Shown one piece after another: positions 5,399-30,421 of a stretch of 64,000 nucleotides of DNA. Numbering within the stretch: position 1 is the stretch's first letter; every line of letters begins with the position of its first letter. The DNA comes from Chloroflexota bacterium (GTDB lineage: Bacteria; Chloroflexota; Anaerolineae; UBA1429). Where the stretch lies: the NCBI GenBank assembly GCA_012729455.1, contig JAAYDC010000012.1, positions 78,758 through 142,757 of the forward strand, written 5' to 3'. The notes below the pieces were generated by a model. The model did no database searches. It was not told the DNA's origin and saw only the letters and a program-made list of their open reading frames with translations. The position numbers were made by a program, and so were the translations under genes.

Positions 5399-5446
5399 GA
5401 TAACAAGAACCCCTGTCTTGCGCAGACAGAGGCTTGTAATATCCAG

Positions 5447-5519
5447 AGCCACCCAAGAGAATTGAACTCTTAACCTGGCGCTTACGAAGCGTCTGCTCTG
5501 CCGATTGAGCTAGGGTGGC
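5447..5519 (-). tRNA. tRNA-Thr (anticodon CGU)
   Basis: Hand-folded cloverleaf on the minus strand. Acceptor GCCACCC/GGGTGGC, D stem GCTC/GAGC, anticodon loop TTCGTAA, T arm AAGAG-TTCAATT-CTCTT. One A-C mismatch in the anticodon stem. No encoded CCA. Confidence 0.9.
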
Positions 5520-7632: not shown

Positions 7633-9423
7633 ATGCAAGAATTCGAAGTCCAGGACCGCGTTCGCTACAATCGCTCTTCCCCCACCCGGTGGTTGATTTC
7701 GCATTTCGCGCGCTATCCACTGCTGCCCATTGCCATGGTGTTATGTGCCATTGGCGAAAACGTGGCAATGGGTTATTCGCGCATCATCATAGGCCGGGCC
7801 TTTAGCTGGATTGGAGAATCCGCGCCGCAGCTTTCCAGCCTGATTACCCTGGTATTGCTGAAAGCCGTTGCGCGCTTTGGCCAGGCCGCCTTTCAGCTGG
7901 GGCGTAACATGTCCACCCAGTTCCTGGGTGAACAGGTCGAGCGCGACTGCCGTGACGAGTTGTACGTCTCGCTCCTGGGTAAGAGCCTGACCTATCACCG
8001 TCAGCAACGCGTAGGCGACATGATGGCGCGCGCCACCAACGACGTCCGCCAGATCAACATCATGGCCAATCCAGGCCTTAACATGATTTTCGCCTCGATC
8101 ATGAACGTGGTTGTATCGCTTGTGATGATTGCCTCGCTGCGCCTCGAGCTGCTGTTGGTGCCGGGCATCTTTGCCATCGTCCTGGCGGCGCTCTTGCGCG
8201 GATATCTGCGCCAACTGCATCCAGTCACCGATGCCATGCGCCAGCAGTTCGGCGCCATGAACGCCGGCCTCGAAGAGACGCTTTCGGGCATTGAGGTGGT
8301 CAAGGCCAACTCCCAGGAAGAACAGGAACAGGCCAAGTTTACCAGCAACGCCCTCAACTTTCGCAACCTGTTCGTCAAACAGGGCGATATCCAGGCGCGC
8401 TACCTGCCCTTTTTGGCCTACAGCATTACCTATGGGTTAGCCTTTCTGCACGCCGTGCTGATCTATATACGCGGTGATAGCTTTGGCATCGGCGATATCA
8501 TCTCCTATATGGGGCTGATCTTTATGCTGCGCTCTCCCACCTTCTTTTCACTCTTTTCGTTCCTGCTGGTGCAGATGGGCTACTCGAGCGCCCAGCGCAT
8601 TCTGAGCGTCTTGAATGCCAAGACCGAGCTGGCCGAAGTGCCGGATGCCTACAACGCCACCATCAGCGGCGAGGTCGCCTTTGAAAATGTGCGCTTCAGA
8701 TACCCCACCACCGGCGATGTGCTGACCAACATCAGCTTTCACGTTAACGCCGGCGAGACGATAGCCATCGTTGGCCAGACGGGCTCGGGCAAGAGCACCC
8801 TCACTCAGCTGATCAACCGCGTCTACGATACCACCGAAGGCAGAGTGCTGGTGGATGGTGTGGACGTGCGCGATTGGAGCCTGGAAGGCTTGCGCTCGCA
8901 GATCGCCACCATCGAGCAAGACCTTTTTCTGTTTTCTCGCACCATCGCCGACAATATCACCTTTGGGGTAGGCCGGCATGCCACCCAGGAAGAGATCGAG
9001 TGCGTCTCGCGCGAAGCTCAGGCGCACGACTTTATCATGAGCTTTCCAGATGGCTACCAGACAGTGGTGGGCGAGCGCGGGGTAACGCTTTCGGGCGGAC
9101 AGCGCCAGCGCATCGCCATCGCGCGTGCCTTTCTCACCAACCCGCGCATCCTGGTGCTGGATGACTCTACCAGTGCTATCGACAGTCAGACCGAAGACGA
9201 GATCCAAAAGGCCATGTATCGTGTTCAACAAGGGCGCACGGTCTTTTTGATCACCCACCGCCTGTCGCAGATCCGTTGGGCCGACCGCATCATCGTGCTG
9301 CAGGATGGCCACATTGCCGACCAAGGCACCCACGACGAGCTGCTGGCGCGCAGCCTGCTGTATCGCCGGATATTTGATCCCTTTGCCGACCTGGCACAAG
9401 ACGCTTCCGAAGGAGCCTCCTGA
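7633..9423 (+). CDS. ABC exporter fused permease/ATPase, subunit with degenerate catalytic site
   Basis: Six-TM N-terminal half. Walker A GQTGSGKST, signature LSGGQRQR, Walker B ILVLDDS (Asp in place of the catalytic Glu), H-loop ITHRLS. Confidence 0.9.
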   Translation: MQEFEVQDRVRYNRSSPTRWLISHFARYPLLPIAMVLCAIGENVAMGYSRIIIGRAFSWIGESAPQLSSLITLVLLKAVARFGQAAFQLGRNMSTQFLGEQVERDCRDELYVSLLGKSLTYHRQQRVGDMMARATNDVRQINIMANPGLNMIFASIMNVVVSLVMIASLRLELLLVPGIFAIVLAALLRGYLRQLHPVTDAMRQQFGAMNAGLEETLSGIEVVKANSQEEQEQAKFTSNALNFRNLFVKQGDIQARYLPFLAYSITYGLAFLHAVLIYIRGDSFGIGDIISYMGLIFMLRSPTFFSLFSFLLVQMGYSSAQRILSVLNAKTELAEVPDAYNATISGEVAFENVRFRYPTTGDVLTNISFHVNAGETIAIVGQTGSGKSTLTQLINRVYDTTEGRVLVDGVDVRDWSLEGLRSQIATIEQDLFLFSRTIADNITFGVGRHATQEEIECVSREAQAHDFIMSFPDGYQTVVGERGVTLSGGQRQRIAIARAFLTNPRILVLDDSTSAIDSQTEDEIQKAMYRVQQGRTVFLITHRLSQIRWADRIIVLQDGHIADQGTHDELLARSLLYRRIFDPFADLAQDASEGAS

Positions 9424-11312
9424 TGGGTTTTATCATGGGCGGGCTCGACCGCGACAGCTATGACCGCACCTACTCCGACCGCGAGCTGCTGCGCCGCATC
9501 CTGGGCTATTTCAAGCCGCAGGCACGCCGCATGGGCGTGGTTACTGCTGTTATCCTGCTCTCGTCGGTATTTGAGGGGCTAATCCCGATTATCCTTTCCA
9601 AAGTCATCGACCGCCTCGAACTGCATGCTCAGCTGCGCGAGGTGATCCTCTTTTGCGTGGCAATCATCCTGCTGCAGTCCTCCAACTGGCTGCTCAACTT
9701 TATCCGGCAGCGCTATTCAGCGCGCGCCATTGGTGATGTGGTGTTGCGGTTGCGCAAAGACGTGTTTGCAGCCGTCAGCACGCACGACCTTTCGTTTTAC
9801 GACGACCAGCCCACCGGCAAGCTGGTGAGCCGCATCACCAGCGACACTCAAGATTTTGCCATGACGATGGACCTGACGATGAACCTCGTCAGCCAGTTGG
9901 GCGGCATGATCATCGTGCTCGGGTTTGCCTTTTCGGTGAGTGTGCGCATGTCGCTCCTGATGCTGGGGATGAGCCCGATCATCATCCTGATCTCGCTCGG
10001 TTTCCGGCGTATCGCCCGCCAGGTTACCCTCAACGCGCGGCGCATCATGGCCAAGGTGAATGCCAATATCCAAGAATCAGTGAGCGGAATCGCTGTCGCC
10101 AAGGGATTTCGCCAGGAAGCCACCATGTATGCGGATTTCGACGAGCTCAACCGCCAGGCATATCGCGTAAACCTAAAACGCGGACTGGTGATGGCTACCA
10201 TCTTCCCGCTGATCGTCGGCACCTTTGGCATCGTGGCTGCCATCATGCTGTATTCCGGCGGCAGTGCGGCCCTGCGCGGATTGACAGAGCCAGCCGCTAT
10301 CGCCACCGGCGCGGCCCTTTCGGTGGGCGGATGGTACCTCTTTATGCAGGCGATGGGCATGTTCTGGTTCCCGATGACCAACATCGCCTCGTTCTGGAGC
10401 CAGTTCCAGGACGGCCTCTCGGCGGCTGAGCGCGTCTTTGCACTCATCGATGCCAACCCGCACGTGATACAGACCGATTCACAGCCCGTGCCCAGGCTGC
10501 AGGGCAAGCTCGAATTCCGCCATGTGCACCTGTCGTATACCGGCAACGAAGTTGTGCTGCCCGACTTTAACTTGCTTGTGGAAGCACGCGAATCGGTGGC
10601 ACTGGTGGGGCACACCGGCGCCGGCAAGACGAGCATCGCTCGCCTGATAGCGCGCTTTTACGAGTTCCAGGACGGCCAGATCCTGGCCGACGACCGCGAC
10701 ATCCGCACGTTTGACCTGCACCAATACCGCCGTCAGCTGGGGATTGTCCCGCAGAACCCGTTCCTGTTTTTGGGCACCGTGCTGGAAAATATCCGCTACG
10801 GCAAGCCCGAAGCCAGCGTCGAGGATGTTGAGCGCGCCGCAGCCCAGGTAGCTGGCGGCGACTGGGTGCATGCCTTACCCAACGGCATCAACACCGATGT
10901 GGGCGAACGCGGGGCCCGCCTGTCGATGGGGCAGCGCCAGCTGGTGGCGCTGGCACGCGTGATCCTGCACGATCCTTCGATCTTTATCCTCGACGAGGCT
11001 ACCGCCAGCGTCGACCCGCTCACCGAGGTGCAGATCCAGCGCGGGCTGCTCGAGGTCATGCGCAACCGCACCTCGATCGTGATCGCCCACCGCCTCTTTA
11101 CCGTGCGGCACGCTCAGCGCATCATTGTGCTTTCTCAGGGCCAGATAATCGAAGAGGGCAACCACGAGTCACTGCTCGAGCGCCGCGGCCATTATGCCGA
11201 ACTGTACGACACTTATTTCCGCCATCAATCGCTCGAATACATCGATTCCTCCCATAACCTGGATCGCCCCGACCAACCAGCATCAGCAAAGGAGCAGGAT
11301 GAGTTCAAGTAA
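9423..11312 (+). CDS. ABC exporter fused permease/ATPase, consensus-site subunit
   Basis: Start shares TGATG with the upstream stop. Walker A GHTGAGKTS, Walker B IFILDEATAS, deviant signature LSMGQRQL, H-loop IAHRLF. Confidence 0.9.
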   Translation: MGFIMGGLDRDSYDRTYSDRELLRRILGYFKPQARRMGVVTAVILLSSVFEGLIPIILSKVIDRLELHAQLREVILFCVAIILLQSSNWLLNFIRQRYSARAIGDVVLRLRKDVFAAVSTHDLSFYDDQPTGKLVSRITSDTQDFAMTMDLTMNLVSQLGGMIIVLGFAFSVSVRMSLLMLGMSPIIILISLGFRRIARQVTLNARRIMAKVNANIQESVSGIAVAKGFRQEATMYADFDELNRQAYRVNLKRGLVMATIFPLIVGTFGIVAAIMLYSGGSAALRGLTEPAAIATGAALSVGGWYLFMQAMGMFWFPMTNIASFWSQFQDGLSAAERVFALIDANPHVIQTDSQPVPRLQGKLEFRHVHLSYTGNEVVLPDFNLLVEARESVALVGHTGAGKTSIARLIARFYEFQDGQILADDRDIRTFDLHQYRRQLGIVPQNPFLFLGTVLENIRYGKPEASVEDVERAAAQVAGGDWVHALPNGINTDVGERGARLSMGQRQLVALARVILHDPSIFILDEATASVDPLTEVQIQRGLLEVMRNRTSIVIAHRLFTVRHAQRIIVLSQGQIIEEGNHESLLERRGHYAELYDTYFRHQSLEYIDSSHNLDRPDQPASAKEQDEFK

Positions 11313-13230
11313 ATTCGTGATCCGCACCCTGGGGGATGCCCCCGCCATCCAATTCGCCGCCAGTGAGCTGCAGCGCTACATCAGCCAGATGACGGGTAAC
11401 CAGGTGCAGCCGGTTATCCAGCCGGCCAAGGAATACGCGCCGGACTCGGATAGCCTGTGGCTGGTCTCGGCCGGATGCGCCTCGCAGGCGCTAGCAGAGC
11501 GCCTGCCCAAAGTGCCCGATAGCCGATGGGATGACGCCTATGTGGCCGAGGTCACCAACGGCAAGGGCACTATCCTTGGCAACAACCCGCGCAGCGTGCT
11601 GATCGGCGCCTATGCCCTGCTGACGGCGGCCGGCTGCCGCTGGGTGCGCCCCGGCAAAGACGGTGAAGTAATCCCTTCAGCCGGCATCGAGCAGCTGACG
11701 CTGAACAAGACATCGGCGGCTTCTTACCGTCACCGCGGTATCTGCATCGAGGGCGCCATAAGCTACGAAAACGTGGCCGATATCATCGACTTTGCGCCCA
11801 AGGTTGGCTACAATGCCTACTTTACCCAGTTCCGCGAATCCTATACCTTTTTCGAGCGCTGGTATCACCACACAGACAACCCCAACCGCAAGCCCGAGGA
11901 GTTCTCTGTCGAGATGGCGCGCGACTTTTTACGGCGCGCTCAGGCTGAGATGCAAAAGCGTGGCATGATATACCACGCCGTCGGCCACGGCTGGACCTGT
12001 GAACCTTTTGGCATCGCCGGGCTGGGCTGGGAATCCAAGGATTACGACATCAGCGACGAGGTGCGTTCTCACCTGGCTGAGGTCAATGGCGTGCGCGATA
12101 TCTGGCACGGGGTGCCGCTCAACACCAACCTGTGCTATTCGAACCCTGTGGTGCGCCAAAAGGTCGTCGAGAACATTGCCGAGTACTGCGCTGCCAACCC
12201 GCAGGTGGATGTGGTGCATTTCTGGTTGGCGGATGATTCAAACAACCAGTGCGAATGCGCCAATTGCCGTCATACACGGCCGTCCGATTTTTATGTGATG
12301 ATGCTCAACGAACTCGACGCGCTGATAACCGAGCGCGGCATTCCGACACGAGTGGTGTTTTTGATTTATGTCGACCTGTTGTGGCCGCCCAAGCAGCAAG
12401 AGCTCGTTAACCAGGAGCGCTTTATCCTGATGTTTGCGCCGATCACGCGCTCCTATACCACGCCATTCAGCGTCGAGGGCGAACTGCCTGAATTGCCTCC
12501 CTTTGAGCTCAACCGCCTTAAATTCCCCAAAAACGTGACGGAGAACGTGGCCTTTTTAAAGGCCTGGCAGGAGCATTTTTCGGGTGACAGCTTTGACTTT
12601 GATTACCACCTCATGTGGGATCACTTCAACGACCCGTCCTATGTCTCGACGGCCGCCATCCTGGGCGAAGACGCGCGCCGGCTGGAGGCTATCGGCCTGA
12701 ACGGCTACATGAGCTGCCAGCTGCAGCGCATCTTTTTCCCGACAGGCCTGCCAATGGCGGTCCTGGGGAGCATCCTGTGGGATAAGACCGCCGACTATGA
12801 CACGATCGCCAACGACTACTATGCAGCGTCCTTTGGCCAGGGCTGGCAGGATACCAAACAATATCTCGAAACGCTCTCGCAGCTCTTTTGCCCGCCCTAT
12901 ATCCGCGGCGAGCGTCCGGTGATCGATGCCGAGGTGGCCGAGGGCCTGGCCAGGATCCGCAGCGTAGTGGAAGGCTTCAAGCCGACCATCGCCACGCAGC
13001 AACAGATCGCGGTTGGCAGCCAGAAAAAGTCGTGGGATTACCTGGCGACGCATGCCGATTGTTGCATCATGCTTGCGCAGGCGCTCCTGCAGCGCGCTCA
13101 GGGCAATCAGGAGGGCGCTAAAGCCACCTGGCAGGAACTGGTCAAGTTCGTGTGGGATCAGGAGCCCAACTTGCAGCCGGTGTTGGATACCTACCTGTTT
13201 GTAAGGACGATGGGCCGGCTCTTTGCCTGA
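11299..13230 (+). CDS. DUF4838-like protein (GH20-type N-terminal fold; putative glycan-active enzyme)
   Basis: Start at ATG 11299 (AGGAG upstream), overlapping the ABC gene end by 14 nt. The pattern KFVIR..AAxELQxYI, GNNPRSVLIGAYALL and RHRGICIEG resembles DUF4838 proteins. Assignment is from memory of the family. Confidence 0.55.
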   Translation: MSSSKFVIRTLGDAPAIQFAASELQRYISQMTGNQVQPVIQPAKEYAPDSDSLWLVSAGCASQALAERLPKVPDSRWDDAYVAEVTNGKGTILGNNPRSVLIGAYALLTAAGCRWVRPGKDGEVIPSAGIEQLTLNKTSAASYRHRGICIEGAISYENVADIIDFAPKVGYNAYFTQFRESYTFFERWYHHTDNPNRKPEEFSVEMARDFLRRAQAEMQKRGMIYHAVGHGWTCEPFGIAGLGWESKDYDISDEVRSHLAEVNGVRDIWHGVPLNTNLCYSNPVVRQKVVENIAEYCAANPQVDVVHFWLADDSNNQCECANCRHTRPSDFYVMMLNELDALITERGIPTRVVFLIYVDLLWPPKQQELVNQERFILMFAPITRSYTTPFSVEGELPELPPFELNRLKFPKNVTENVAFLKAWQEHFSGDSFDFDYHLMWDHFNDPSYVSTAAILGEDARRLEAIGLNGYMSCQLQRIFFPTGLPMAVLGSILWDKTADYDTIANDYYAASFGQGWQDTKQYLETLSQLFCPPYIRGERPVIDAEVAEGLARIRSVVEGFKPTIATQQQIAVGSQKKSWDYLATHADCCIMLAQALLQRAQGNQEGAKATWQELVKFVWDQEPNLQPVLDTYLFVRTMGRLFA

Positions 13231-13232
13231 GG

Positions 13233-13760
13233 CTAGCTGGCTAACTCTGTATAGCCATCCCGGGCGATCTCCTTGGTATAGATCACCTTGGCATCGCCCG
13301 GGGCATAAAAGTTGTTGATGCGCGCCGTCTTGCGATAGCCGCGGCGCAGGTAAAACTGGCAGGTAGGCCGGTATTGGTTGCTGCCCGACGTTTCGATGCA
13401 GATCAGGTGCCCACCCGCCTCGCGGATGTTTTCTTCGGCAAAATGCAACAAAAGCGACCCGTATCCCATCTTGTGGTGGTGATTCTCGACCGCCAGCCAA
13501 TAGATATCATAGGTGCCGCGCGTCCCGGGGGTTGCACCCCAGCAGATCCACCCCAGCACAGCATCGCCTTCTGCCAGCACAAACGATTGATAGGCGCTCG
13601 TGCCATGCGGATGCAGGGCATCATCGAACACCTCAAGGGCAACCAGGATTTCCTCCTCGCGAAAAAAGCCGGTACCCCTCAGCAAGGTCTCTACCAGAGG
13701 ACGATCATATTGGGTGGAACATCGAATCGTAGCCCCCAGAGGGGTCTCTGTTTCACGCAT
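13233..13760 (-). CDS. GNAT family N-acetyltransferase
   Basis: Acetyl-CoA motif region LAVENHHHKMGYGSLLLHFAEE plus FYLRRGY. ATG 13760 overlaps the upstream stop (ATGCGTGA). Confidence 0.8.
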   Translation of the reverse strand: MRETETPLGATIRCSTQYDRPLVETLLRGTGFFREEEILVALEVFDDALHPHGTSAYQSFVLAEGDAVLGWICWGATPGTRGTYDIYWLAVENHHHKMGYGSLLLHFAEENIREAGGHLICIETSGSNQYRPTCQFYLRRGYRKTARINNFYAPGDAKVIYTKEIARDGYTELAS

Positions 13761-14352
13761 TAATCGCCTCAGGCAGATCCAGCCTGGCACGGGCATTGCT
13801 CACGATCGTCTCGATAAACGCATCGTAACTGAGCCCATCCGCCGACAATGCGGCGGTAAAGCCGGCATCCGGTGAGATATCGGGGTTGGGGTTGATCTCT
13901 AACACGTAGGGTATCGTGCCCTCCAGCCTGAAATCGACGCGTGCGTAATCGCGGCAGCCGATAGCGTGCCAGGCTGCCAACGCTGTACGCCGGACCGCTG
14001 CGGCGGCAAAGAGAGCCTTGGCGCGCTGTTTATCCAACCCCAGCATCAGCGCCAGGGTGCCGTTGCCGGTGCAGCTGCGGCCAAAGGCGCGACATACAGC
14101 CGGCACCAGCGAGGCATCCTGAATGCCCGATGACAGGTACTCCACCAGGTTGATCACCACCCGCTCGTCGTAGCGCGGCAGCGCCGCTGCCAGCTCATCC
14201 AGGCAGGTGATGCTGAGGATGCGTGCGCGTATCCCCAGGCGATTCAGGCTGGAGCACACCGCTGCGACCTCCTCAAGGATGCCTACATCGCTCTCGCCGT
14301 CGCCAGCCAGCGGGGCATTATAGAGCACCAGAACGTCCGACACGGTCTGCAT
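13753..14352 (-). CDS. Ddl-like ATP-grasp homolog lacking the central ATP-grasp domain
   Basis: 199 aa. Its N-domain aligns to the adjacent 326-aa paralog up to GLDKQRAKALF. It then jumps directly to the C-terminal CRDYARVDFRL...YVLEINPNPDISP block, so about 125 aa are missing in frame. Confidence 0.65.
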   Translation of the reverse strand: MQTVSDVLVLYNAPLAGDGESDVGILEEVAAVCSSLNRLGIRARILSITCLDELAAALPRYDERVVINLVEYLSSGIQDASLVPAVCRAFGRSCTGNGTLALMLGLDKQRAKALFAAAAVRRTALAAWHAIGCRDYARVDFRLEGTIPYVLEINPNPDISPDAGFTAALSADGLSYDAFIETIVSNARARLDLPEAINA

Positions 14353-15332
14353 CAGGCACCGTCCTGACGCGCCAGAGCCGCCTGAATGACCCTGCCGATC
14401 AACTCGCGATAGGTGACGCCGGCACGATAGGCGATCATTGGCAGATCCGAATGAATCGGGTTCAGCCCGGGCAGCGGGTTAACCTCGAGAAAGTTGGGCG
14501 TGCCGCCAGTGTCCAGGCGGATATCGACCCGCGCGGCGTCGCGGCAGTCAAGTGCGTGGTAACTCGCCAGCGCCAGCTGCGAAACGGCTTGTGCCACCTC
14601 GGGCTCGCCCGGTACGCCATAGTGCACCAGCTTTTGCCAGTTTTCCTTGTTCTCATAGCTGTAGACCGCATCGTGCGAGGCCTGTACCAGCACTTCGAGC
14701 ATCCCCAGCACGTTCGCCTGCGCGCCGTTACCTGTGATGCCAACGGTGAACTCGCGCCCGGGCAGGTAGGTCTCTATCAACACGGGTTGGTTGAATTCCT
14801 GCAGCAGTGCCGCGACAGTGCGTCGCAGCTCGGTTGTATCTCCCACGCGTGATGCCGTGCTGATGCCCTTGCCGGTGCCCTCGGCCAGTGGTTTGGCAAA
14901 CAGCGGATAGGGCAAGGCGACGCTAGCGAGATCTTCGACACTGCGCGCCACGGCGAAATCGGCGGTCGGAAGGCCGTGGGAGCGTACCAACTGCTTGGTA
15001 ACGGCTTTATCCAGAGTAACCGCGCACACCAGCGGGTCCGAAAAGGTATAGGGGATGCCATACAGCTCGAGGATGGCCGGCACCTGCGCCTCGCGGCTAC
15101 GTCCCTGCAAGCCTTCGGCGATGTTGAACACCAAGTCCCAGCGTTCGCCGTGCTCCAGACTATTGATAAGGGCGCGAGCGTGACCGATGCGCACAGGCAG
15201 AGCGCCAAATGCCGCGATAGCGTCTTCGATAGCGCGAATGGTCAGATCCGAATCAAACTCGGCGGTATCGGCCTCTGAGTATCCCAGGGCGAGATAGTCG
15301 CTGCGCAGATCATAGGTCATGCCAATGCGCAT
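14352..15332 (-). CDS. D-alanine--D-alanine ligase family ATP-grasp ligase (substrates unknown)
   Basis: 326 aa with LDKAVTKQL, YPLFAKPLAEGTGKGI, VLIETYLPGREFTVGI and CRDAARVDIRLD...FLEVNPLPGL, typical of Ddl-type ATP-grasp enzymes. Confidence 0.8.
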   Translation of the reverse strand: MRIGMTYDLRSDYLALGYSEADTAEFDSDLTIRAIEDAIAAFGALPVRIGHARALINSLEHGERWDLVFNIAEGLQGRSREAQVPAILELYGIPYTFSDPLVCAVTLDKAVTKQLVRSHGLPTADFAVARSVEDLASVALPYPLFAKPLAEGTGKGISTASRVGDTTELRRTVAALLQEFNQPVLIETYLPGREFTVGITGNGAQANVLGMLEVLVQASHDAVYSYENKENWQKLVHYGVPGEPEVAQAVSQLALASYHALDCRDAARVDIRLDTGGTPNFLEVNPLPGLNPIHSDLPMIAYRAGVTYRELIGRVIQAALARQDGA

Positions 15333-15361
15333 GCTGGATGTACTCCGTGGGTGTGATGAGG

Positions 15362-16651
15362 CTAACTGCCGTGGCGCAGCTTGCGGCGCTGAATGCGGCT
15401 GCTATCGGCGGGATAGATGGCGCTGGCCTTGCCAGAGACGAGTTCCCACACGCCGGGCTGGGGCACCTCGCCGCCGCCCTCGCGACGATGCGTGGCCTGC
15501 CCCAGGTCGGGTTCAGGGTAGCTCACCAGCATGCCTTCACAGTTACGCAGCACCGTATGCGTCGGGCTCATCGAGACGATATAGTTGGGCATCAACGGGA
15601 TTTTGCCACCGCCGTGCGGAGCATCGACCACAAAAGTTGGGATCGCCAGGCCGCTCAGACGCCCGCGCAGGTACTCCATAATCTCGAGCCCGCGCGTGAG
15701 CGGGGTGCGGAAGTGCTCGACCCCGCGCACCAGATCGCACTGATAGAGGTAATAGGGGCGCACGCGTATAGCCACCAACTCGCGGCAAAGCGTTTCGATG
15801 ATCTCGGGCTGGTCATTGACGCCGCGCAGTAGTACCGACTGGTTGCCCAGCGGAAAGCCGGCATCTGCCAGCGCAGCGCAGGCAGCCCGCGATGCAGGGG
15901 TGATCTCGACGGGATGGTTAAAATGGGTGTTGATCCAGATCGGCTGGTAACGGCGCAGCATGGCAACCAGCTCGGGGGTGATGCGCATCGGCATAGTGAC
16001 GGGCACGCGTGTGCCGATGCGGATAATCTGTACACTCGGTATGCTGCGCACAGCAGATAGCACGCACTCGAGCTGGTGGTCGGAGAGGACCAGCGGGTCG
16101 CCACCCGAGAGGATCACGTCGCTGACATCGGGATGCTCCCTCAGGTAGGCCACTGCCTGCTCGAGATGGGCCTGGCTGATGGTCTCTTCTACCACGCCCA
16201 CCTCGCGCTTGCGCGTGCAATGCCGGCAGTACATGGCGCAGGCACTGCTGATGATAAACAGGGCGCGGTCAGGATAGCGGCGGATCAGCCCCGGCACGGG
16301 CATGTCGTCGTGCTCTTCGAGTGGATCATCCGAGACATAAGGCGAATTGACCAGCTCAAACAGCTGCGGCACGCTCATCTGGTAAATCGGGTCGGAGACA
16401 CCCGGGCTGCGCATTAGCCCGGCATAATAGGGCGTGATCGCCATCGGAAAGCGCTCAGCGGCACGCATGACATCGTCGGGATCCAGGGCGGGCATATAGC
16501 GGCGCAGGTCGTCGGCCGAGCGGATACGGTGCTGCATCTGCCAGATCCAGCTGTTCCATTCGGCATGCTGGCCGGGAGGCTCATCCTCCGCCGCAGAGGA
16601 AGGTTCCTTGCTATCCTGCTCAACGCTCAGAACAGTCTGTTCGTCAACCAT
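15362..16651 (-). CDS. kamA: lysine 2,3-aminomutase (KamA family radical SAM/PLP enzyme)
   Basis: WNSWIWQMQHRI N-terminal signature, radical SAM CAMYCRHCTRK, PLP-lysine block APHGGGKIP, C-terminal VLRNCEGMLVSYPEP. Collinear with clostridial KamA. Confidence 0.9.
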   Translation of the reverse strand: MVDEQTVLSVEQDSKEPSSAAEDEPPGQHAEWNSWIWQMQHRIRSADDLRRYMPALDPDDVMRAAERFPMAITPYYAGLMRSPGVSDPIYQMSVPQLFELVNSPYVSDDPLEEHDDMPVPGLIRRYPDRALFIISSACAMYCRHCTRKREVGVVEETISQAHLEQAVAYLREHPDVSDVILSGGDPLVLSDHQLECVLSAVRSIPSVQIIRIGTRVPVTMPMRITPELVAMLRRYQPIWINTHFNHPVEITPASRAACAALADAGFPLGNQSVLLRGVNDQPEIIETLCRELVAIRVRPYYLYQCDLVRGVEHFRTPLTRGLEIMEYLRGRLSGLAIPTFVVDAPHGGGKIPLMPNYIVSMSPTHTVLRNCEGMLVSYPEPDLGQATHRREGGGEVPQPGVWELVSGKASAIYPADSSRIQRRKLRHGS

Positions 16652-16929
16652 CAGTATGTGAGCCTCTCCCTGCCGGATGTGCTGGAGCGCGCTGCGACAG
16701 CACTCAAGTCCTGGTTACGTTTGGTGAAGGTCTATCGAGCTTGAGCGCTGCTCTTCGCCCAATCAGTCTGATGTGGCGCGCCCCGCGTAATGAGGTTACT
16801 ACCGGATCGGTTGCTCTGGCCACAACGAAGGGAAACCGCATGCGAATCGCACTTATGGCTCATATGATATACATGTACCCGGTGCTGTCAAGATTTTTAG
16901 GCTGTATGGAGCCAGCCGCCGGCTTGTGC

Positions 16930-16935
16930 TATACT
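16930..16935 (+). promoter_or_regulatory. candidate extended -10 element (TGcTATACT) for the 16988-21019 operon
   Basis: TATACT is preceded by TGC, about 50 nt upstream of GTG 16988. No convincing -35 element. Confidence 0.35.
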
Positions 16936-16987
16936 AGCTCAGTAGGCGGCAAACAGCCCCACCTGCCCGAAACGATCGAGGTCAAGC

Positions 16988-17611
16988 GTGCGCAGAACGA
17001 TTTATTATCTGGCGGCCAGCATCAGCGGGTTGCTGGTGGCAGCGAGTTATCTGGTGCGGGCCTTTTGGCTCGACCAGGCCTCTGCTATCCTGCAGGAAGG
17101 CGCATTGATCCTGTTGGGATTCGCCGGCATCGCGCTGGCCGCTCGGGCGGCAACTATGGTGCAGCGCCGCATCCAGCACAACCCTGCTGCCCGCTGGTAT
17201 GGCGGTCTGGCGATCGCTGCGTTCGCCGTCACCCTTGTGGTGGTGCTGGCAGATGGCAGCGGGACATATAGTGGCCTGATCGGCAACGCCATCCTGCTGC
17301 CCGGTCTAGGCGCCCTGGCTGCTGTGGCGTTCTTTTACCTGGTGCAGTGGGGCTTGCAGTTGATCGGCTTACGGCTGGCTTCGGCCGCGCTCCTGGCACT
17401 CGGTACCATCGCGGCTTTGCTGCTGGCCAACCCCCTATTGGCAGCCTACTGGCCAGCGGCAGAAACTGTGCGTATCTGGCTGATTGAGGTCCCGCTAGCC
17501 GCGGTGCTGCGCGCCGTGCTGCTGGGCATGGTGATCTGGGGTATCCCCCAAGGGGTGCGCAGCGCCATTGTGGCGCTCGCACCGCGTCCATCTGACCAGG
17601 AGCAGCCCTGA
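16988..17611 (+). CDS. polytopic membrane protein, unknown function
   Basis: 207 aa with about 6 hydrophobic helices. GTG start with GAGG upstream. Its stop shares TGATG with the next gene. Confidence 0.6.
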   Translation: MRRTIYYLAASISGLLVAASYLVRAFWLDQASAILQEGALILLGFAGIALAARAATMVQRRIQHNPAARWYGGLAIAAFAVTLVVVLADGSGTYSGLIGNAILLPGLGALAAVAFFYLVQWGLQLIGLRLASAALLALGTIAALLLANPLLAAYWPAAETVRIWLIEVPLAAVLRAVLLGMVIWGIPQGVRSAIVALAPRPSDQEQP

Positions 17612-18681
17612 TGGTGATCTGCCCCACCTGCAAAGCGCATAACGACAGCAAAGATCATCGCTGCAGCGTGTGCGGCGGCAACCTCGCGGGCGCCCGTTTG
17701 CGGGTCTGTCCCAACTGCGGCACCCCCAACCTGCTGTGCGACCTCTATTGCATCCAATGCCTGCAACTGCTGCCAGCTGCCGAACTCGAGACAGCTGCCT
17801 TTCTAAAGGATAGCAGTTCTGCTGACCTGACACCTGATCCGCTCGCCATGGTAACCCAGGGCTTGCCCGAAGCGCGCCTCGACTTTAGCCCCGCCCAAAC
17901 CCACGACCCCGAGGATAGCGCCCAACCCCTCCCGCCGATTCCAGCCGAATCGCGGTTGCCTGCCTTGCTGCAGCTGCCGTGCGGCTTGCGCTTGATACTG
18001 GTTCTGTTACTGCTGGGAGCCTGTCTGATGCCGATGGTCTGGCGCGACGATCCGCAGGCTTTGGCCGACCAAGCAGTGGCCGAGGTGCTAGAACCGATCG
18101 CACCGAACAGCACGGTACTGGTGGCGATCGAATACGGGCCGGCTTATGCTGGCGAGTTACAACCGATGGCCGAGGCATTGCTGGACGGTCTGACGGAGCG
18201 TGGTACAGTCAGTGTGCTGGTCACCAGCCATCCGCTGGGCATGGCTAACCTGGAGCGTCTGGCCGCCGGCCACGAGGGTGCGGTCAACCTGGGCTATGTG
18301 CTTGGCGGCGCGCTGGGATTGCGGCTGATGTACGGTCAACCTAGCGGGTGTATGCCGCCAGCCGCCTCGCGCGCCCCGCTCGGGCAGATGGTGGTAATCG
18401 CCCAGTCGCCGGTGGGCGTGCAGCGCTGGCTCGAACAGGTCCAGAGTACCCAGCGCATGCAGGTATTGGCGCTAGTGAGCGCGCAAGCCGAGTTGGCACT
18501 TGAACCGTACCGCGCCAGCAGCCAGCTCAGCCGGCTGTATAGCCCTGCCTCACTCGCGCTTCAAGAGCCTGTGCAAACCGCCCAGACAGGCTGGGGCGTT
18601 GGCCTGGGGATGCTCCTGGTTGTGATCGTAGCCGGAGCGGTGTCTATCTGCTTGCTGGCTCGCAGGCGCGGAGCGCTGTGA
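17611..18681 (+). CDS. double zinc-ribbon protein with two TM helices flanking an extracytoplasmic domain
   Basis: N-terminal CPTC-x13-CSVC and CPNC-x12-CIQC pairs, then an acidic/Pro-rich linker. TM helix LILVLLLLGACLM, a ~200-aa domain, and C-terminal TM LLVVIVAGAVSICLL. Confidence 0.65.
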   Translation: MVICPTCKAHNDSKDHRCSVCGGNLAGARLRVCPNCGTPNLLCDLYCIQCLQLLPAAELETAAFLKDSSSADLTPDPLAMVTQGLPEARLDFSPAQTHDPEDSAQPLPPIPAESRLPALLQLPCGLRLILVLLLLGACLMPMVWRDDPQALADQAVAEVLEPIAPNSTVLVAIEYGPAYAGELQPMAEALLDGLTERGTVSVLVTSHPLGMANLERLAAGHEGAVNLGYVLGGALGLRLMYGQPSGCMPPAASRAPLGQMVVIAQSPVGVQRWLEQVQSTQRMQVLALVSAQAELALEPYRASSQLSRLYSPASLALQEPVQTAQTGWGVGLGMLLVVIVAGAVSICLLARRRGAL

Positions 18682-19352
18682 TGCCAGCCAACACCTATCC
18701 GATCATCGGCCTTGTCCTGACGGTGGCGATCGGCTCGCGCCTGTTGGGGCGCAATGTGGTCTTTCGTGTCGCACTCAGCTTGCTGTTGGGCACCGCCGCC
18801 GGTTATGGCTTGGCAATGCTGCTGCGCGGGGCGCTCGTTCCGCGCATTCAATTGATCATCCAACAGCCAAGGCAGTATTGGCATCTGGGCGTCTTTATGC
18901 TGTTGGGGCTTGGTCTGGTGGTGCAGAGCCTGTGGCCCAAGGCCGCTGTGGACGAGCTGCCGCTGGGAATCCTGGCGGGGGTTGTATCCGCCGTGCTGCT
19001 GGCCGGCGCACTGGCGGGCAGCGGCATCCCGCAGCTGCGTGTTCTGGTGGGTCAGACGCTTCCCGGGATAACGACCTCTGCCTGGCCCGATATCCTGCGC
19101 GCTGGGTTGATGGTCATCGGCACGCTGGCGGTGCTGGCAGCCTTTCACCGCAGCGGCTCGTCTCCATCCGCCAGCCTGGGATGGCTCGCCAAAAGCTGGT
19201 CTTGGCTGGGCCGTACCCTCGGCCGGGGGTTGCTTCTGTTTTCCGGCGGCGCGCTCTACGCCGGTTTGCTGATGGCGCTCTACCGCATTCTGGTGAGCCG
19301 GGTGGATTACCTGCAACAAACCGTCACCAGCATACTGGAGGTGCTGCGATGA
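18678..19352 (+). CDS. polytopic membrane protein, unknown function
   Basis: 224 aa with about 6 hydrophobic helices. GTGATG start overlaps the upstream stop. Confidence 0.6.
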   Translation: MMPANTYPIIGLVLTVAIGSRLLGRNVVFRVALSLLLGTAAGYGLAMLLRGALVPRIQLIIQQPRQYWHLGVFMLLGLGLVVQSLWPKAAVDELPLGILAGVVSAVLLAGALAGSGIPQLRVLVGQTLPGITTSAWPDILRAGLMVIGTLAVLAAFHRSGSSPSASLGWLAKSWSWLGRTLGRGLLLFSGGALYAGLLMALYRILVSRVDYLQQTVTSILEVLR

Positions 19353-21019
19353 GCGACACCCCCGCGCTGCGTACACCGATCCTGGCGGCCGAGATTCATC
19401 GCGACATCACGCGCGTGCATTGGCTGGCCGATATCGAGGGCCGCTACCGCCTGGTAGCAAGCGGCAGCGCGCCAACCACGCTGGATGCCGACCGTGGCGT
19501 GGCAGACGGTTTGCAGCAGGCGCTGCGTAGAATCGAGGAAACCACCCTCTATACTATATTCAGCCCGTCTGGTCGCCCCACTATACCGATGGTGGGCAGT
19601 CCGCCAGCTCAGCTATACTGCTGCAGCGATGCGGCAGCACCCTTGCGCATCACCCTGCTGGCAGCCCAATCCAACGGCAGCCTGGCAAGCGATCAGCGCG
19701 CCTGTCAGCTGCCCTTTTGCGAGGCTCCCAGCATTTATCGCGTCCCCGCTGCCAGCCAGGATGACGACGGACTGGAAGAAACCCTCCTGGCGGGGCCGAT
19801 GGCCGACGTGGTCATCTTTGGCGAGGGGCTGGGCGGCGCCCTGGAACGCCTGGCACGCCGCCTGCTGGCGTTGTATACCAACTTTGCGCGCGATCAGCGC
19901 CCGATTGTGCTATGTGCCGCCGCCCAGCCCGCGCGGCGCAGCCTGCACACGATCCTGGGGGCCGATTTTGACCTGCGACCCATCAACCCGACCGTCCCGA
20001 GCCGCGATGCGATTGATGTAGGCGACTTGCAGCGCGCCCTTGTACGCATTTATGAACAGACCTGCCTGCTCAACCTGCCCGGCTATGAGTATCTTGCCGA
20101 TTGGTGTGCTCAGGCGCCTATCAGCAGCCATCGGGCACTCACTCAAGCCGCCCCCTTTTTACCGGATGCAGCGGGCAAAGCCAATGCATTAATTGTCGAC
20201 CTGCAGGCGGCCACTAGCGCTGTGCTGGAAGTCCCCTCAGGAGCAGCCATCGGCCTGCGCGGCGGTTACCACACCACCCAGGCGTCTGGCCCTGAACTGA
20301 CCCGCTGGCTGCCGTTGGGTTACCCGGCAGACGAGAGCGTATGCGAACGCCTGTACCCCGGCGAAAGCCCTGTGCTGGACGCCGAGACCGAAGCCTGGGC
20401 AACCACAGCCGGCGCACAGCAAGCCCTCTACCAGCTGGGGCAGGCGCTGCGCGAGGATCCTGCCGGGCTTGCATCGCCAGCCAGGAGCGACTATATCGCC
20501 CTGCATGGCGAGCTGCTCGCACAGCCTCAGGGTTGCGCTGCCGCATGGGCTGCCATCCTGAACGGCCTGCAAAGCACTGGCGCAACCCGCGTGGTATTTG
20601 ATGTGCACCACCTGTGGGCAGCCCTGAGCGCCGCTGCCGGCCCAGCAGAGACCGCCGTGAGTGAGGTGCTTGCCCAGCCGGCCATGTCGCAGATGGGATT
20701 GTGTCTGGCGCCCGGAACAAAGGCGCGCGGCAACCGCACCGCTCTGGCGGTGCGCATTACCGACGCTGCCAGCATCGTCACCCAGCACAGCGTGCCGCCC
20801 GCAACCCTAGTGCGCCTGGCTGCGCCGGATGGTCTGATCCGCGCCGAAACCCGCGCGGGCTGGCGCTCTTATCCGAACCAGTCTATACTCGAGTTCCAGG
20901 CTGCTATCGGCCAGCTCGGCCTGGTGCTCGATACACGTCCCCGTCCACTCGAGATTGAACAGGCTGGCCGCTTTTGGCGCATGCGCACGCGGGAGGATTG
21001 GCAAGCCCTCGTTGACTGA
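19349..21019 (+). CDS. large soluble protein of unknown function (possible degenerate GlmL/MutL-like ASKHA fold)
   Basis: Start taken at ATG 19349 (ATGA overlap with the upstream stop). The ORF-track start at 18878 would lie out of frame over the membrane gene. The N-terminus ILAAEIHRDITRVHWLADIEG..LVASGSAPTT...GVADGLQQAL resembles the first strands of GlmL-type proteins. Confidence 0.55.
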   Translation: MSDTPALRTPILAAEIHRDITRVHWLADIEGRYRLVASGSAPTTLDADRGVADGLQQALRRIEETTLYTIFSPSGRPTIPMVGSPPAQLYCCSDAAAPLRITLLAAQSNGSLASDQRACQLPFCEAPSIYRVPAASQDDDGLEETLLAGPMADVVIFGEGLGGALERLARRLLALYTNFARDQRPIVLCAAAQPARRSLHTILGADFDLRPINPTVPSRDAIDVGDLQRALVRIYEQTCLLNLPGYEYLADWCAQAPISSHRALTQAAPFLPDAAGKANALIVDLQAATSAVLEVPSGAAIGLRGGYHTTQASGPELTRWLPLGYPADESVCERLYPGESPVLDAETEAWATTAGAQQALYQLGQALREDPAGLASPARSDYIALHGELLAQPQGCAAAWAAILNGLQSTGATRVVFDVHHLWAALSAAAGPAETAVSEVLAQPAMSQMGLCLAPGTKARGNRTALAVRITDAASIVTQHSVPPATLVRLAAPDGLIRAETRAGWRSYPNQSILEFQAAIGQLGLVLDTRPRPLEIEQAGRFWRMRTREDWQALVD

Positions 21020-29546: not shown

Positions 29547-30304
29547 ACACGCCCAATGTAAGCATCTTTACTGCGCTGATCGCCGGGTTATTAGCTTTCT
29601 TTTCGCCATGCGTCTTGCCTCTGGTACCCGCTTATCTGGGCTACATGGCTGGCACCACCGTCTCGGGGTTGGCCAGCACCAGCCGCTGGCGCATTGCCTT
29701 GCACGCGCTGGTCTTTACGCTCGGTTTTGGTCTGGTGTTTACCCTGCTGGGGGCTGCGGCGGGCCTGCTGGGCAGTGCCCTGGGGCGCTACTTGCCCGCT
29801 GTAGTGCGCATTGGCGGCGTGTTCCTGATCATCTTGGGGCTAGACCTGCTGGGGCTGGTGCGCATCCCCTTTTTACAGATGGAAAGACGCCTGGAAGTAC
29901 GCCCCAAGCGCAGCGGCTACTGGGCCTCGTTTCTGGTGGGCATGGTCTTTGCTGCTGGTTGGACGCCCTGCATCGGGCCGGTGCTGGCTAGCATCCTGGT
30001 TCTAGCAGCCAACAGCCAGACAGTATGGCAGGGCAGCCTGCTGCTGGCGGTGTTTTCGCTGGGGCTGGGAGTGCCCTTTATCGCCGTAGGGGCGCTCTTT
30101 CATGTGTTGCTGCCCCTGATGCGCCGCATGGGCAAATGGGTGCGCATCTTTAACTATGTGGGCGGCGGGTTGCTGATCGTGATGGGATTTCTGCTGCTGA
30201 CGGGGCTTTTCTCCCAGATCAGCTTTTATATGGACCAATTCGCAGCAGGTCCGGTTTTGGCGTTCGGCTTCTCCAGCACTATAATGGCCTCGTACGGGGC
30301 GTAG
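29543..30304 (+). CDS. ccdA: cytochrome c biogenesis protein CcdA (DsbD-family thiol-disulfide transporter)
   Basis: ATGA overlap with the upstream gene. Motifs FSPCVLPLVPAYL and WTPCIGPVLASIL. Confidence 0.85.
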   Translation: MNTPNVSIFTALIAGLLAFFSPCVLPLVPAYLGYMAGTTVSGLASTSRWRIALHALVFTLGFGLVFTLLGAAAGLLGSALGRYLPAVVRIGGVFLIILGLDLLGLVRIPFLQMERRLEVRPKRSGYWASFLVGMVFAAGWTPCIGPVLASILVLAANSQTVWQGSLLLAVFSLGLGVPFIAVGALFHVLLPLMRRMGKWVRIFNYVGGGLLIVMGFLLLTGLFSQISFYMDQFAAGPVLAFGFSSTIMASYGA

Positions 30305-30368
30305 CGCAGTCCGGTAGCGCGCACGGTTCGGGACCGTGAGGTCGGAGGTTCAAGTCCTCTCGCCCCGA
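30295..30368 (+). tRNA. tRNA-Pro (anticodon CGG)
   Basis: Hand-folded. Acceptor CGGGGCG/CGCCCCG, D stem GCGC/GCGC, anticodon stem CACGG/CCGTG with loop TTCGGGA, T arm GGAGG-TTCAAGT-CCTCT, discriminator A. No encoded CCA. Its 5' end overlaps the last 10 nt of ccdA. Confidence 0.9.
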
Positions 30369-30421
30369 CTCTAGCCATGCTGCTGAGAACGGCGTAGACC
30401 GCTCCAAAGCAGGAGAATAGC

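Follow-up and report, generated by a model that had tools for sequence, protein, structure and literature searches.

A widespread bacterial operon with two D-alanine–D-alanine ligase-like genes between a lysine 2,3-aminomutase and an acetyltransferase, and its possible role in the formation of beta-lysine conjugates

The compatible solute N-epsilon-acetyl-beta-lysine is made by two enzymes, the lysine 2,3-aminomutase KamA (AblA) and the GNAT acetyltransferase AblB (YodP). In the PylB/PylC pair of pyrrolysine biosynthesis, a radical-SAM rearrangement of lysine is followed by the action of an ATP-grasp enzyme similar to D-alanine–D-alanine ligase (Ddl), which couples the product of this rearrangement to another amine via an acyl phosphate. 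Sagot et al. are said to have described, in 2010, the formation of the osmolyte N-acetylglutaminylglutamine amide by Ngg and AsnO, with Ngg reportedly combining a GNAT and an ATP-grasp domain on one polypeptide. The stretch of DNA analysed here, referred to below as the window, comprises 64,000 nucleotides of contig JAAYDC010000012.1 of a Chloroflexota bacterium (assembly GCA_012729455.1). Its positions 13233-16651 hold four genes on the minus strand, encoding a lysine 2,3-aminomutase (KamA), a full-length Ddl-family ATP-grasp ligase (AG1), the remnant of a second Ddl-family ligase (AG2-del) and an N-acetyltransferase (GNAT). KamA and AG1 are separated by 29 nt, AG1 overlaps AG2-del by 1 nt and AG2-del overlaps GNAT by 8 nt; both the coordinates and the tight same-strand packing reported in an earlier sequence-only reading of this DNA were confirmed. 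Together the four make up one copy of an operon that is widespread and as yet uncharacterised. The evidence leans towards a small cytoplasmic N-acetylated amide conjugate of beta-lysine as the product of this operon, the version of the window strain being probably one unit shorter.

An AG1 pattern scan covering one genome per species recovered at least 568 stretches in which a relative of AG1 is encoded. The best 80 of these stretches span at least 12 phylum-level lineages and belong mostly to metagenome-assembled genomes (MAGs) from anoxic freshwater, groundwater, peat, sediment and reactors; together with two loci from a protein look-up, they make up the set of 82 loci used below. KamA is located immediately upstream of AG1 in 67 of the 75 loci with enough flanking sequence, and a full-length AG2 gene lies immediately downstream of AG1 in 65 of the 75 testable loci. 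AG2 is followed by GNAT in 56 of the 68 loci where this could be tested. The earlier proposal that the ATP-grasp genes belong with KamA and GNAT is thus borne out, the order KamA-AG1-AG2-GNAT being conserved in at least 12 phylum-level lineages, and since this order recurs in other phyla the arrangement is more than a product of chance. Among related loci, the type of KamA co-varies with the type of AG2, which indicates that the operon behaves as a unit. The replacement of KamA by an alternative amino-acid-modifying enzyme was considered for the loci lacking it and rejected, because these loci are flanked by unrelated housekeeping genes (NadA, NadB, FliM, YchF and the like).

A single open reading frame (ORF) of 509-569 aa encodes fused AG2 and GNAT in 16 of 68 loci, mostly in the clade of the window, and this fusion suggests that the two proteins act in consecutive steps. 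Within the window-type clade, 13 of 19 loci have the fused form, among them that of the closest relative, a Chloroflexi MAG (L002); in the window it is split. About 19 loci possess an optional fifth gene, the product of which (approximately 582 aa) consists of a weakly GNAT-like N-terminus and a C-terminal domain resembling acetylpolyamine amidohydrolases (PDB 6PHR and 3Q9B; E-values from 9e-72 for 6PHR to 1e-63). Examples of this putative deacetylase gene are located at 10575-12323 in L001 and 8629-10386 in L091, and no NCBIfam model covers it. Acetylpolyamine amidohydrolases act on small molecules, and the closeness of the fifth gene to them therefore favours a small-molecule product.

Clustering of all ORFs of the 82 loci revealed no other widely shared neighbour and no conserved exporter, nonribosomal peptide synthetase (NRPS) or precursor peptide. 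The recurrent extras were regulators only, namely TetR proteins (11 loci) and sigma-54 activators (about seven loci). These regulators are located upstream of KamA and depend on the lineage: sigma-54 enhancer-binding proteins are encoded in the Desulfovibrio group (L089, 2874-4310; L091, 2857-4293), and 11 loci of the window-type clade encode TetR-family repressors (for example, L003, 4862-5503). Neither a TetR nor a sigma-54 regulator is encoded within the intergenic region upstream of KamA in the window. As for existing annotation, none of AG1, AG2, GNAT and the deacetylase reaches the cutoff of any NCBIfam model, and a known product is assigned to the cluster in none of NCBIfam, PADLOC, Rfam and the open-access literature, in agreement with the earlier statement that no characterised pathway of this composition was known. 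A role in anti-phage defence was also considered and rejected, as PADLOC gave no matches.

The KamA gene (15362-16651, minus strand) encodes a 429-aa protein with the features of a lysine 2,3-aminomutase dependent on radical SAM chemistry and pyridoxal phosphate (PLP). The Pfam families LAM_C (96.5 bits) and Radical_SAM (47.3 bits) were both found above their gathering scores, and the protein aligns end to end with Clostridium subterminale lysine 2,3-aminomutase (PDB 2A5H) with an E-value of 2e-131. Its top-scoring model within the KamA family is TIGR03820 (lys_2_3_AblA), with 508.1 bits, just below the equivalog cutoff of 525.4. The general KamA family model TIGR00238 is passed (324 against a cutoff of 199), and the scores lie well under the cutoffs of the glutamate, arginine and EF-P (EpmB) subfamily models, that of EpmB being 248 against a cutoff of 369. 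Both motifs quoted previously, SSACAMYCRHCTRKR and DAPHGGGK, are present in the protein. The CxxxCxxC motif of the 4Fe-4S cluster is formed by C138, C142 and C145, equivalent to C125, C129 and C132 of 2A5H, and R147, D306, D343 and K350 correspond to R134, D293, D330 and K337. In the solved enzyme, R134 binds the carboxylate and K337 binds PLP, while D293 and D330 hold the epsilon-ammonium group of lysine; the two aspartates are replaced in glutamate 2,3-aminomutase. The three 4Fe-4S cysteines and the equivalents of R134, D293, D330 and the PLP lysine are kept in all 61-63 aligned KamA proteins of the clusters. The structural zinc site is absent from KamA, where Gln occupies the position of Cys268 and the C-terminal CxCxxC triad is missing; Cys is found at the Cys268 position in none of the aligned cluster KamA proteins, and all of them are devoid of this site. 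The description of the gene product as a bona fide lysine 2,3-aminomutase is upheld by the presence of every lysine-specific residue of the solved enzyme. By these residues KamA is a lysine-specific 2,3-aminomutase, which would convert L-lysine to beta-lysine.

AG1 (14352-15332, minus strand, 326 aa) covers positions 1-204 of the Pfam profile Dala_Dala_lig_C with 109.3 bits, which agrees with its earlier designation as a full-length ligase of the Ddl family. It stays far below the cutoffs of the curated Ddl models, with 161.7 against 243 for NF002378 and 141.4 against 245.65 for TIGR01205. For a residue-level comparison, 83 AG1 and 68 AG2 sequences were aligned with DdlB of E. coli, the reference sequence being identical to 1IOV/2DLN. 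The nine ATP- and Mg-binding residues of DdlB (K97, K144, E180, E187, K215, R255, D257, E270 and N272) are invariant in all 83 AG1 sequences and invariant or nearly so in the 68 full-length AG2 sequences. The residues of the D-Ala site are replaced in both ligases. In AG1, S150 is substituted by Thr, position 216 (Tyr in DdlB) is variable and L282 is substituted by an invariant Asp (D296), while AG2 has Ala, Trp and Gly at the positions of S150, Y216 and L282, respectively. The position of DdlB E15 is ambiguous in the alignment owing to a one-column shift beside the invariant E25 of AG1.

By these marks AG1 is not a true D-Ala-D-Ala ligase. The retention of the ATP/Mg set, the replacement of the D-Ala-site residues and the scores far under the Ddl cutoffs indicate that AG1 and AG2 are active-looking ligases of the Ddl fold that use other substrates. 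The invariant Asp at the position of L282 would suit an extra ammonium group on the incoming nucleophile of AG1. Identity between AG1 proteins is 51-64% from Chloroflexi to Desulfobacterota, Planctomycetota and Bacteroidota, and identity between AG1 and AG2 is only about 25-30%, the two being different, ancient ligases. In both sequence and fold, they come closest to Ddl and VanA.

The second ligase of the window, AG2-del (13753-14352, minus strand), is a 199-aa remnant with an in-frame internal deletion. It matches Dala_Dala_lig_C above the gathering score, with 38.9 bits over profile positions 135-203 only, and its score with the curated Ddl models, 51.9, lies below the cutoffs. Its residues 1-118 correspond to residues 1-123 of the L002 ortholog and its residues 119-199 to that protein from residue 263 onward. 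The 139 residues absent between these two parts correspond to DdlB 108-235, that is, to the whole central ATP-grasp domain and the omega loop. In DdlB numbering, K144, E180, E187 and K215 are lost, including the ATP-binding lysine and the adenine and ribose glutamates, and K97, R255, D257, E270 and N272 are left. The link between AG2 and GNAT is also broken in the window, within the linker region, resulting in separate genes with the 8-nt overlap. AG2 orthologs elsewhere are 324-390 aa long, or 509-569 aa where fused to GNAT. The gene had been described as a domain-deleted paralog of AG1; the internal domain deletion is real, but the protein, with approximately 27% identity to AG1, is not a copy of it and represents instead an ortholog of a distinct second ligase.

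The deletion preserves the reading frame and both tight gene junctions, and it is unique among about 720 homologues. Four short AG2 matches (P0204, P0209, P0210 and P0224) were considered as carriers of the same deletion and rejected, since they lack N-terminal residues instead and have no central deletion. An identical AG2-del protein is encoded on 14 contigs. Six loci from these contigs (L083-L088), which come from independent metagenome assemblies (ENA, JGI and Logan), are 99.95-100% identical to the window at the DNA level over the region 13000-17000. An assembly artefact or population variation can thus be rejected as the cause of the deletion. This identity also marks the source organism, by best hits a Chloroflexi (Anaerolineae-like) bacterium, as a lineage that is essentially clonal and has been sampled widely. 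A different AG2 with an in-frame stop and a scrambled central domain was noticed in a Pirellulales MAG (L074, 8073-9074), where KamA is not adjacent, which points to another degenerate AG2 or to an error in the assembly.

The relative rate of change was assessed in a three-way comparison that set the window against L002, with 13 outgroups. Changes unique to the window and changes unique to L002 stand in a ratio of 1.03 for AG2-del, as compared with 1.26 for KamA, 0.94 for AG1 and 1.21 for GNAT, and AG2-del bears no sign of long neutral decay. The AlphaFold2 model of AG2-del has a pLDDT of 89.7 and a pTM of 0.86, this confidence partly reflecting the full-length homologues in the alignment, and can be superposed on Ddl structures in their N- and C-terminal domains with a TM-score of about 0.7. 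Because the ATP-binding core is lost, AG2-del is predicted to be unable to ligate, and for that reason the window strain probably makes a shorter product. The deletion may be recent, or the remnant may be kept for a non-catalytic role, for instance as a non-catalytic partner.

The fourth gene, GNAT (13233-13760, minus strand), encodes 175 aa counted from an internal ATG, the start also picked by independent gene callers on the identical contigs. Its assignment to the GNAT family was corroborated by Pfam, in which both Acetyltransf_7 (36.6 against 27) and Acetyltransf_1 (35.4 against 20.7) exceed the gathering scores. The suggestion that it is AblB-like did not hold up: window GNAT has no match to TIGR03827 (GNAT_ablB) and is hit at E ≤ 0.01 only by the models rimI, PRK03624 and PRK10146, all below cutoff, and the GNAT ortholog of Thiovibrio is likewise without a TIGR03827 match. 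The best solved relative is PDB 2R7H, a "putative D-alanine N-acetyltransferase" (E = 9e-33), whose source we take to be Desulfovibrio alaskensis G20. Its nearest named relatives are proteins of Oleidesulfovibrio and Desulfovibrio species. The L089 operon, a cluster comprising a sigma-54 activator, KamA, AG1, AG2 and GNAT, encodes a protein with 99% identity to 2R7H, and Desulfovibrio mangrovi (L091) has a cluster of the same type with the deacetylase added. In the open-access literature, it was not possible to find a functional paper on 2R7H.

Upstream of the KamA gene, a candidate promoter of the sigma-70 type is located at 16864-16891 on the minus strand, approximately 210 nt before the KamA ATG. 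It consists of TTGACA, a 16-nt spacer and TATCAT, and is proposed from the consensus match only, which extends to 11 of 12 positions; it is the sole such match in 4.2 kb, and shuffled sequence yields 1.4 by chance. A riboswitch or other leader RNA was also considered in this region and rejected. The fold of the KamA leader has no unusual energy (z = -0.08), an nhmmer comparison of the leader with all related loci gave no match, and Rfam scans of the whole window and ten related loci at the gathering threshold found nothing upstream of KamA. With a permissive threshold, the Rfam scan of the region 13000-17300 returned sub-threshold chance matches within coding sequence only.

Taken together, the gene content can be arranged into a pathway. 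KamA, which carries the lysine-specific residues, would convert L-lysine to beta-lysine. AG1, using the acyl-phosphate mechanism of Ddl enzymes, would then form one amide bond between beta-lysine and another amino compound, and AG2 would attach a further residue via an amide bond. A free amine would be acetylated by GNAT, often fused to AG2, and where the deacetylase is encoded it would undo the acetylation for turnover or homeostasis. The neighbourhood evidence strengthens the earlier idea of a beta-lysine-containing dipeptide or conjugate; the product, presumably N-acetylated, would remain inside the cell as a metabolite similar to compatible solutes or polyamines. In the window strain, with the core of AG2 lost and AG2 split from GNAT, the pathway would stop one ligation short. 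A broader proposal can be put forward tentatively: the operon may make a hitherto undescribed beta-lysine metabolite, widespread among anaerobic bacteria of a dozen phyla, in the form of an N-acetylated di- or tripeptide-like amide that would represent a new class of compatible solute or polyamine-like cation with its own cycle of acetylation and deacetylation, and the window strain may be a natural knock-out of the second ligase that makes a shortened variant.

Simpler accounts of the same genes fare less well. If KamA and GNAT formed a plain AblA/AblB pathway to N-epsilon-acetyl-beta-lysine, the ATP-grasp genes would be unrelated neighbours; the AblA model does give KamA its top score and a GNAT is indeed there, but linkage within the operon is tightest for the ligases, which stand between KamA and GNAT in dozens of lineages, AG2 is fused to GNAT in 16 loci, and GNAT has no TIGR03827 match, so that this explanation is very improbable. 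It is still harder to regard KamA as the first catabolic step of lysine fermentation. The clostridial pathway does begin with this enzyme, but genes for beta-lysine 5,6-aminomutase, 3,5-diaminohexanoate dehydrogenase or the cleavage enzyme are lacking in the neighbourhood of the window operon, and no such catabolic family is common to the 82 loci; we consider fermentation extremely improbable. Another possibility, which seems unlikely, is local decay, with the AG2 deletion and the lost AG2-GNAT fusion marking early pseudogenisation and the ancestral product no longer made in this strain. Essential ATP-binding residues have been removed by a deletion seen in none of the other homologues, and the fusion retained in most window-type loci, L002 among them, is split here. 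On the other hand, KamA, AG1 and GNAT are intact with all family-invariant residues, the deletion is in frame with both tight junctions retained, AG2-del has no excess of substitutions (1.03 against 0.94-1.26 for the other three genes) and it is predicted to fold confidently. Decay would, besides, concern this strain only and is compatible with the explanation preferred for the family.

Two further explanations concern the nature of the product. AG1 and AG2 might attach beta-lysine to, or extend it on, a protein, peptidoglycan or some other polymer. ATP-grasp enzymes of related fold, RimK and LysX, can act on protein termini, and RimK and the EF-P beta-lysylation system carry out comparable modifications with other ligases. 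The high conservation of AG1, at 51-64% across phyla, is what a conserved partner would lead one to expect, and the lack of an exporter shared among the 82 loci fits as well. Against this stand the absence of a conserved acceptor gene candidate from the neighbourhood of the same loci, the position of the small-molecule enzymes Ddl and VanA as nearest relatives of both ligases in sequence and fold, the resemblance of the linked deacetylase to small-molecule acetylpolyamine amidohydrolases, and the fact that EF-P beta-lysylation in these phyla is credited to EpmA (PMC12856214). Modification of a macromolecule thus appears quite improbable. We give a similarly low rating to an oligomer of beta-lysine or a short cationic isopeptide, in which one ligase would initiate and the other elongate, while GNAT and the deacetylase tune the charge as in polyamines. 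The family does have two distinct, catalytically complete ligases and an acetyltransferase paired with an acetylpolyamine-amidohydrolase-like enzyme, and the acceptor pocket of AG1 holds an invariant acidic residue. However, the AG2-GNAT fusion suggests the capping of a defined end and not open-ended polymerisation, and the known isopeptide polymers of beta-lysine and lysine are products of NRPS-like synthetases (compare PMC9606270 and PMC10522769).

The formation of a small N-acetylated beta-lysine conjugate, preferred here, has points against it as well. The record titles place many of the carriers in metagenomes of freshwater, groundwater, peat and sulfidic springs, and such non-saline habitats argue against a strictly high-salt or halophilic osmolyte role. 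The joint presence of GNAT and a deacetylase could mean that the acetyl group is a protecting group or a regulatory step instead of a final feature of the product. About 10% of loci have no adjacent KamA, so that beta-lysine may be dispensable. Judged by sequence, enzymes of the Ddl type could also act on a macromolecular acceptor.

If the proposed pathway is correct, more than 500 bacterial species, most of them anaerobes, make one and the same beta-lysine metabolite that has so far gone unrecognised, the carriers including sulfate reducers, planctomycetes, anaerobic Bacteroidota, Lentisphaerae and Chloroflexi. The genes of the operon are now misleadingly annotated as "D-alanine--D-alanine ligase" and "RimI-like acetyltransferase", and the present result warns against a cell-wall reading of these Ddl-like genes. 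One component of the operon, from a cultivated bacterium of the Desulfovibrio group, has already been solved with its function unassigned (PDB 2R7H). The window itself represents a natural experiment in which the second ligase has been gutted and the rest of the operon left intact.

The surroundings of the operon in the window are shared in part with L002. Divergently from KamA, the plus strand of the region 16988-21019 encodes a 207-aa membrane protein, a 356-aa double-zinc-ribbon protein (PF12773), a 224-aa membrane protein and a PF13941 'MutL' protein of approximately 556 aa, similar to the glutamate mutase accessory protein. This four-gene block also lies beside the operon in the Chloroflexi MAG L002 and is not found there in other phyla. 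On the other side, a gene at 11194-13230 (plus strand) faces GNAT tail to tail, the stops being 2 nt apart; its product contains DUF4838 and a domain similar to the N-terminal one of glycoside hydrolase 67, and the gene is syntenic in L002. Further away, the region 7633-11312 (plus strand) contains two consecutive genes of the ABC exporter type (ABC_membrane and ABC_tran; 596 and 629 aa), overlapping by stop and start at 9423, which look like a heterodimeric exporter pair. The genes of tRNA-Thr (CGT) at 5446-5519 (minus strand) and tRNA-Pro (CGG) at 30295-30369 (plus strand) were also detected, and beyond these two tRNAs neither rRNA nor any other Rfam family was found above threshold in the 64 kb.

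In comparison with the known systems, the operon shares with AblA/AblB the presence of a lysine 2,3-aminomutase and an acetyltransferase in one operon, with a KamA that scores best on the AblA model and keeps the lysine-binding residues. It differs in the two Ddl-type ligases conserved between the two genes, in a GNAT of a different, shorter family with no TIGR03827 match, and in a KamA that is devoid of the zinc site and scores slightly below the equivalog cutoff of the AblA model. In the EpmB/EpmA system, too, an aminomutase of the KamA family supplies beta-lysine for an amide linkage, but the EpmB model scores far lower on KamA (248 against 369), and the ligase EpmA of the EF-P system is a paralog of LysRS and not an ATP-grasp enzyme (PMC12856214).

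AG1 and full-length AG2 have the fold of Ddl and VanA, their best matches in sequence and structure, as well as the complete ATP/Mg catalytic set. They differ from these enzymes in the score (161.7 for AG1 against the cutoff of 243), in the replacement of S150, Y216 and L282 and in the lack of a cell-wall gene context. The acetylpolyamine amidohydrolases resemble the C-terminal domain of the fifth-gene protein of related loci (E = 9e-72 to 1e-63), but this protein, of approximately 582 aa, has an extra GNAT-like N-terminal domain, and its gene is absent from the window.

The likeness to Ngg, which reportedly makes an N-acetylated dipeptide, consists in the pairing of a GNAT with an ATP-grasp domain, which the AG2-GNAT fusions of 509-569 aa parallel. 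Here, however, there is no amidotransferase partner, and the amino acid fed in would be beta-lysine and not glutamine; in the window, moreover, the fusion is split and its ligase half crippled, so the two activities do not reside on one polypeptide. PylB/PylC resembles the operon in coupling a radical-SAM rearrangement of lysine to a Ddl-like ligase, but KamA is a PLP-dependent aminomutase and not a methylornithine synthase, and a PylD-like gene is lacking here. PylC is not among the PDB sequence matches of the ligases at E ≤ 1e-5. None of AblA/AblB, Ngg and PylB/PylC has this gene composition, and the finding is rated here as a variant of the known beta-lysine and N-acetyl-peptide solute pathways.

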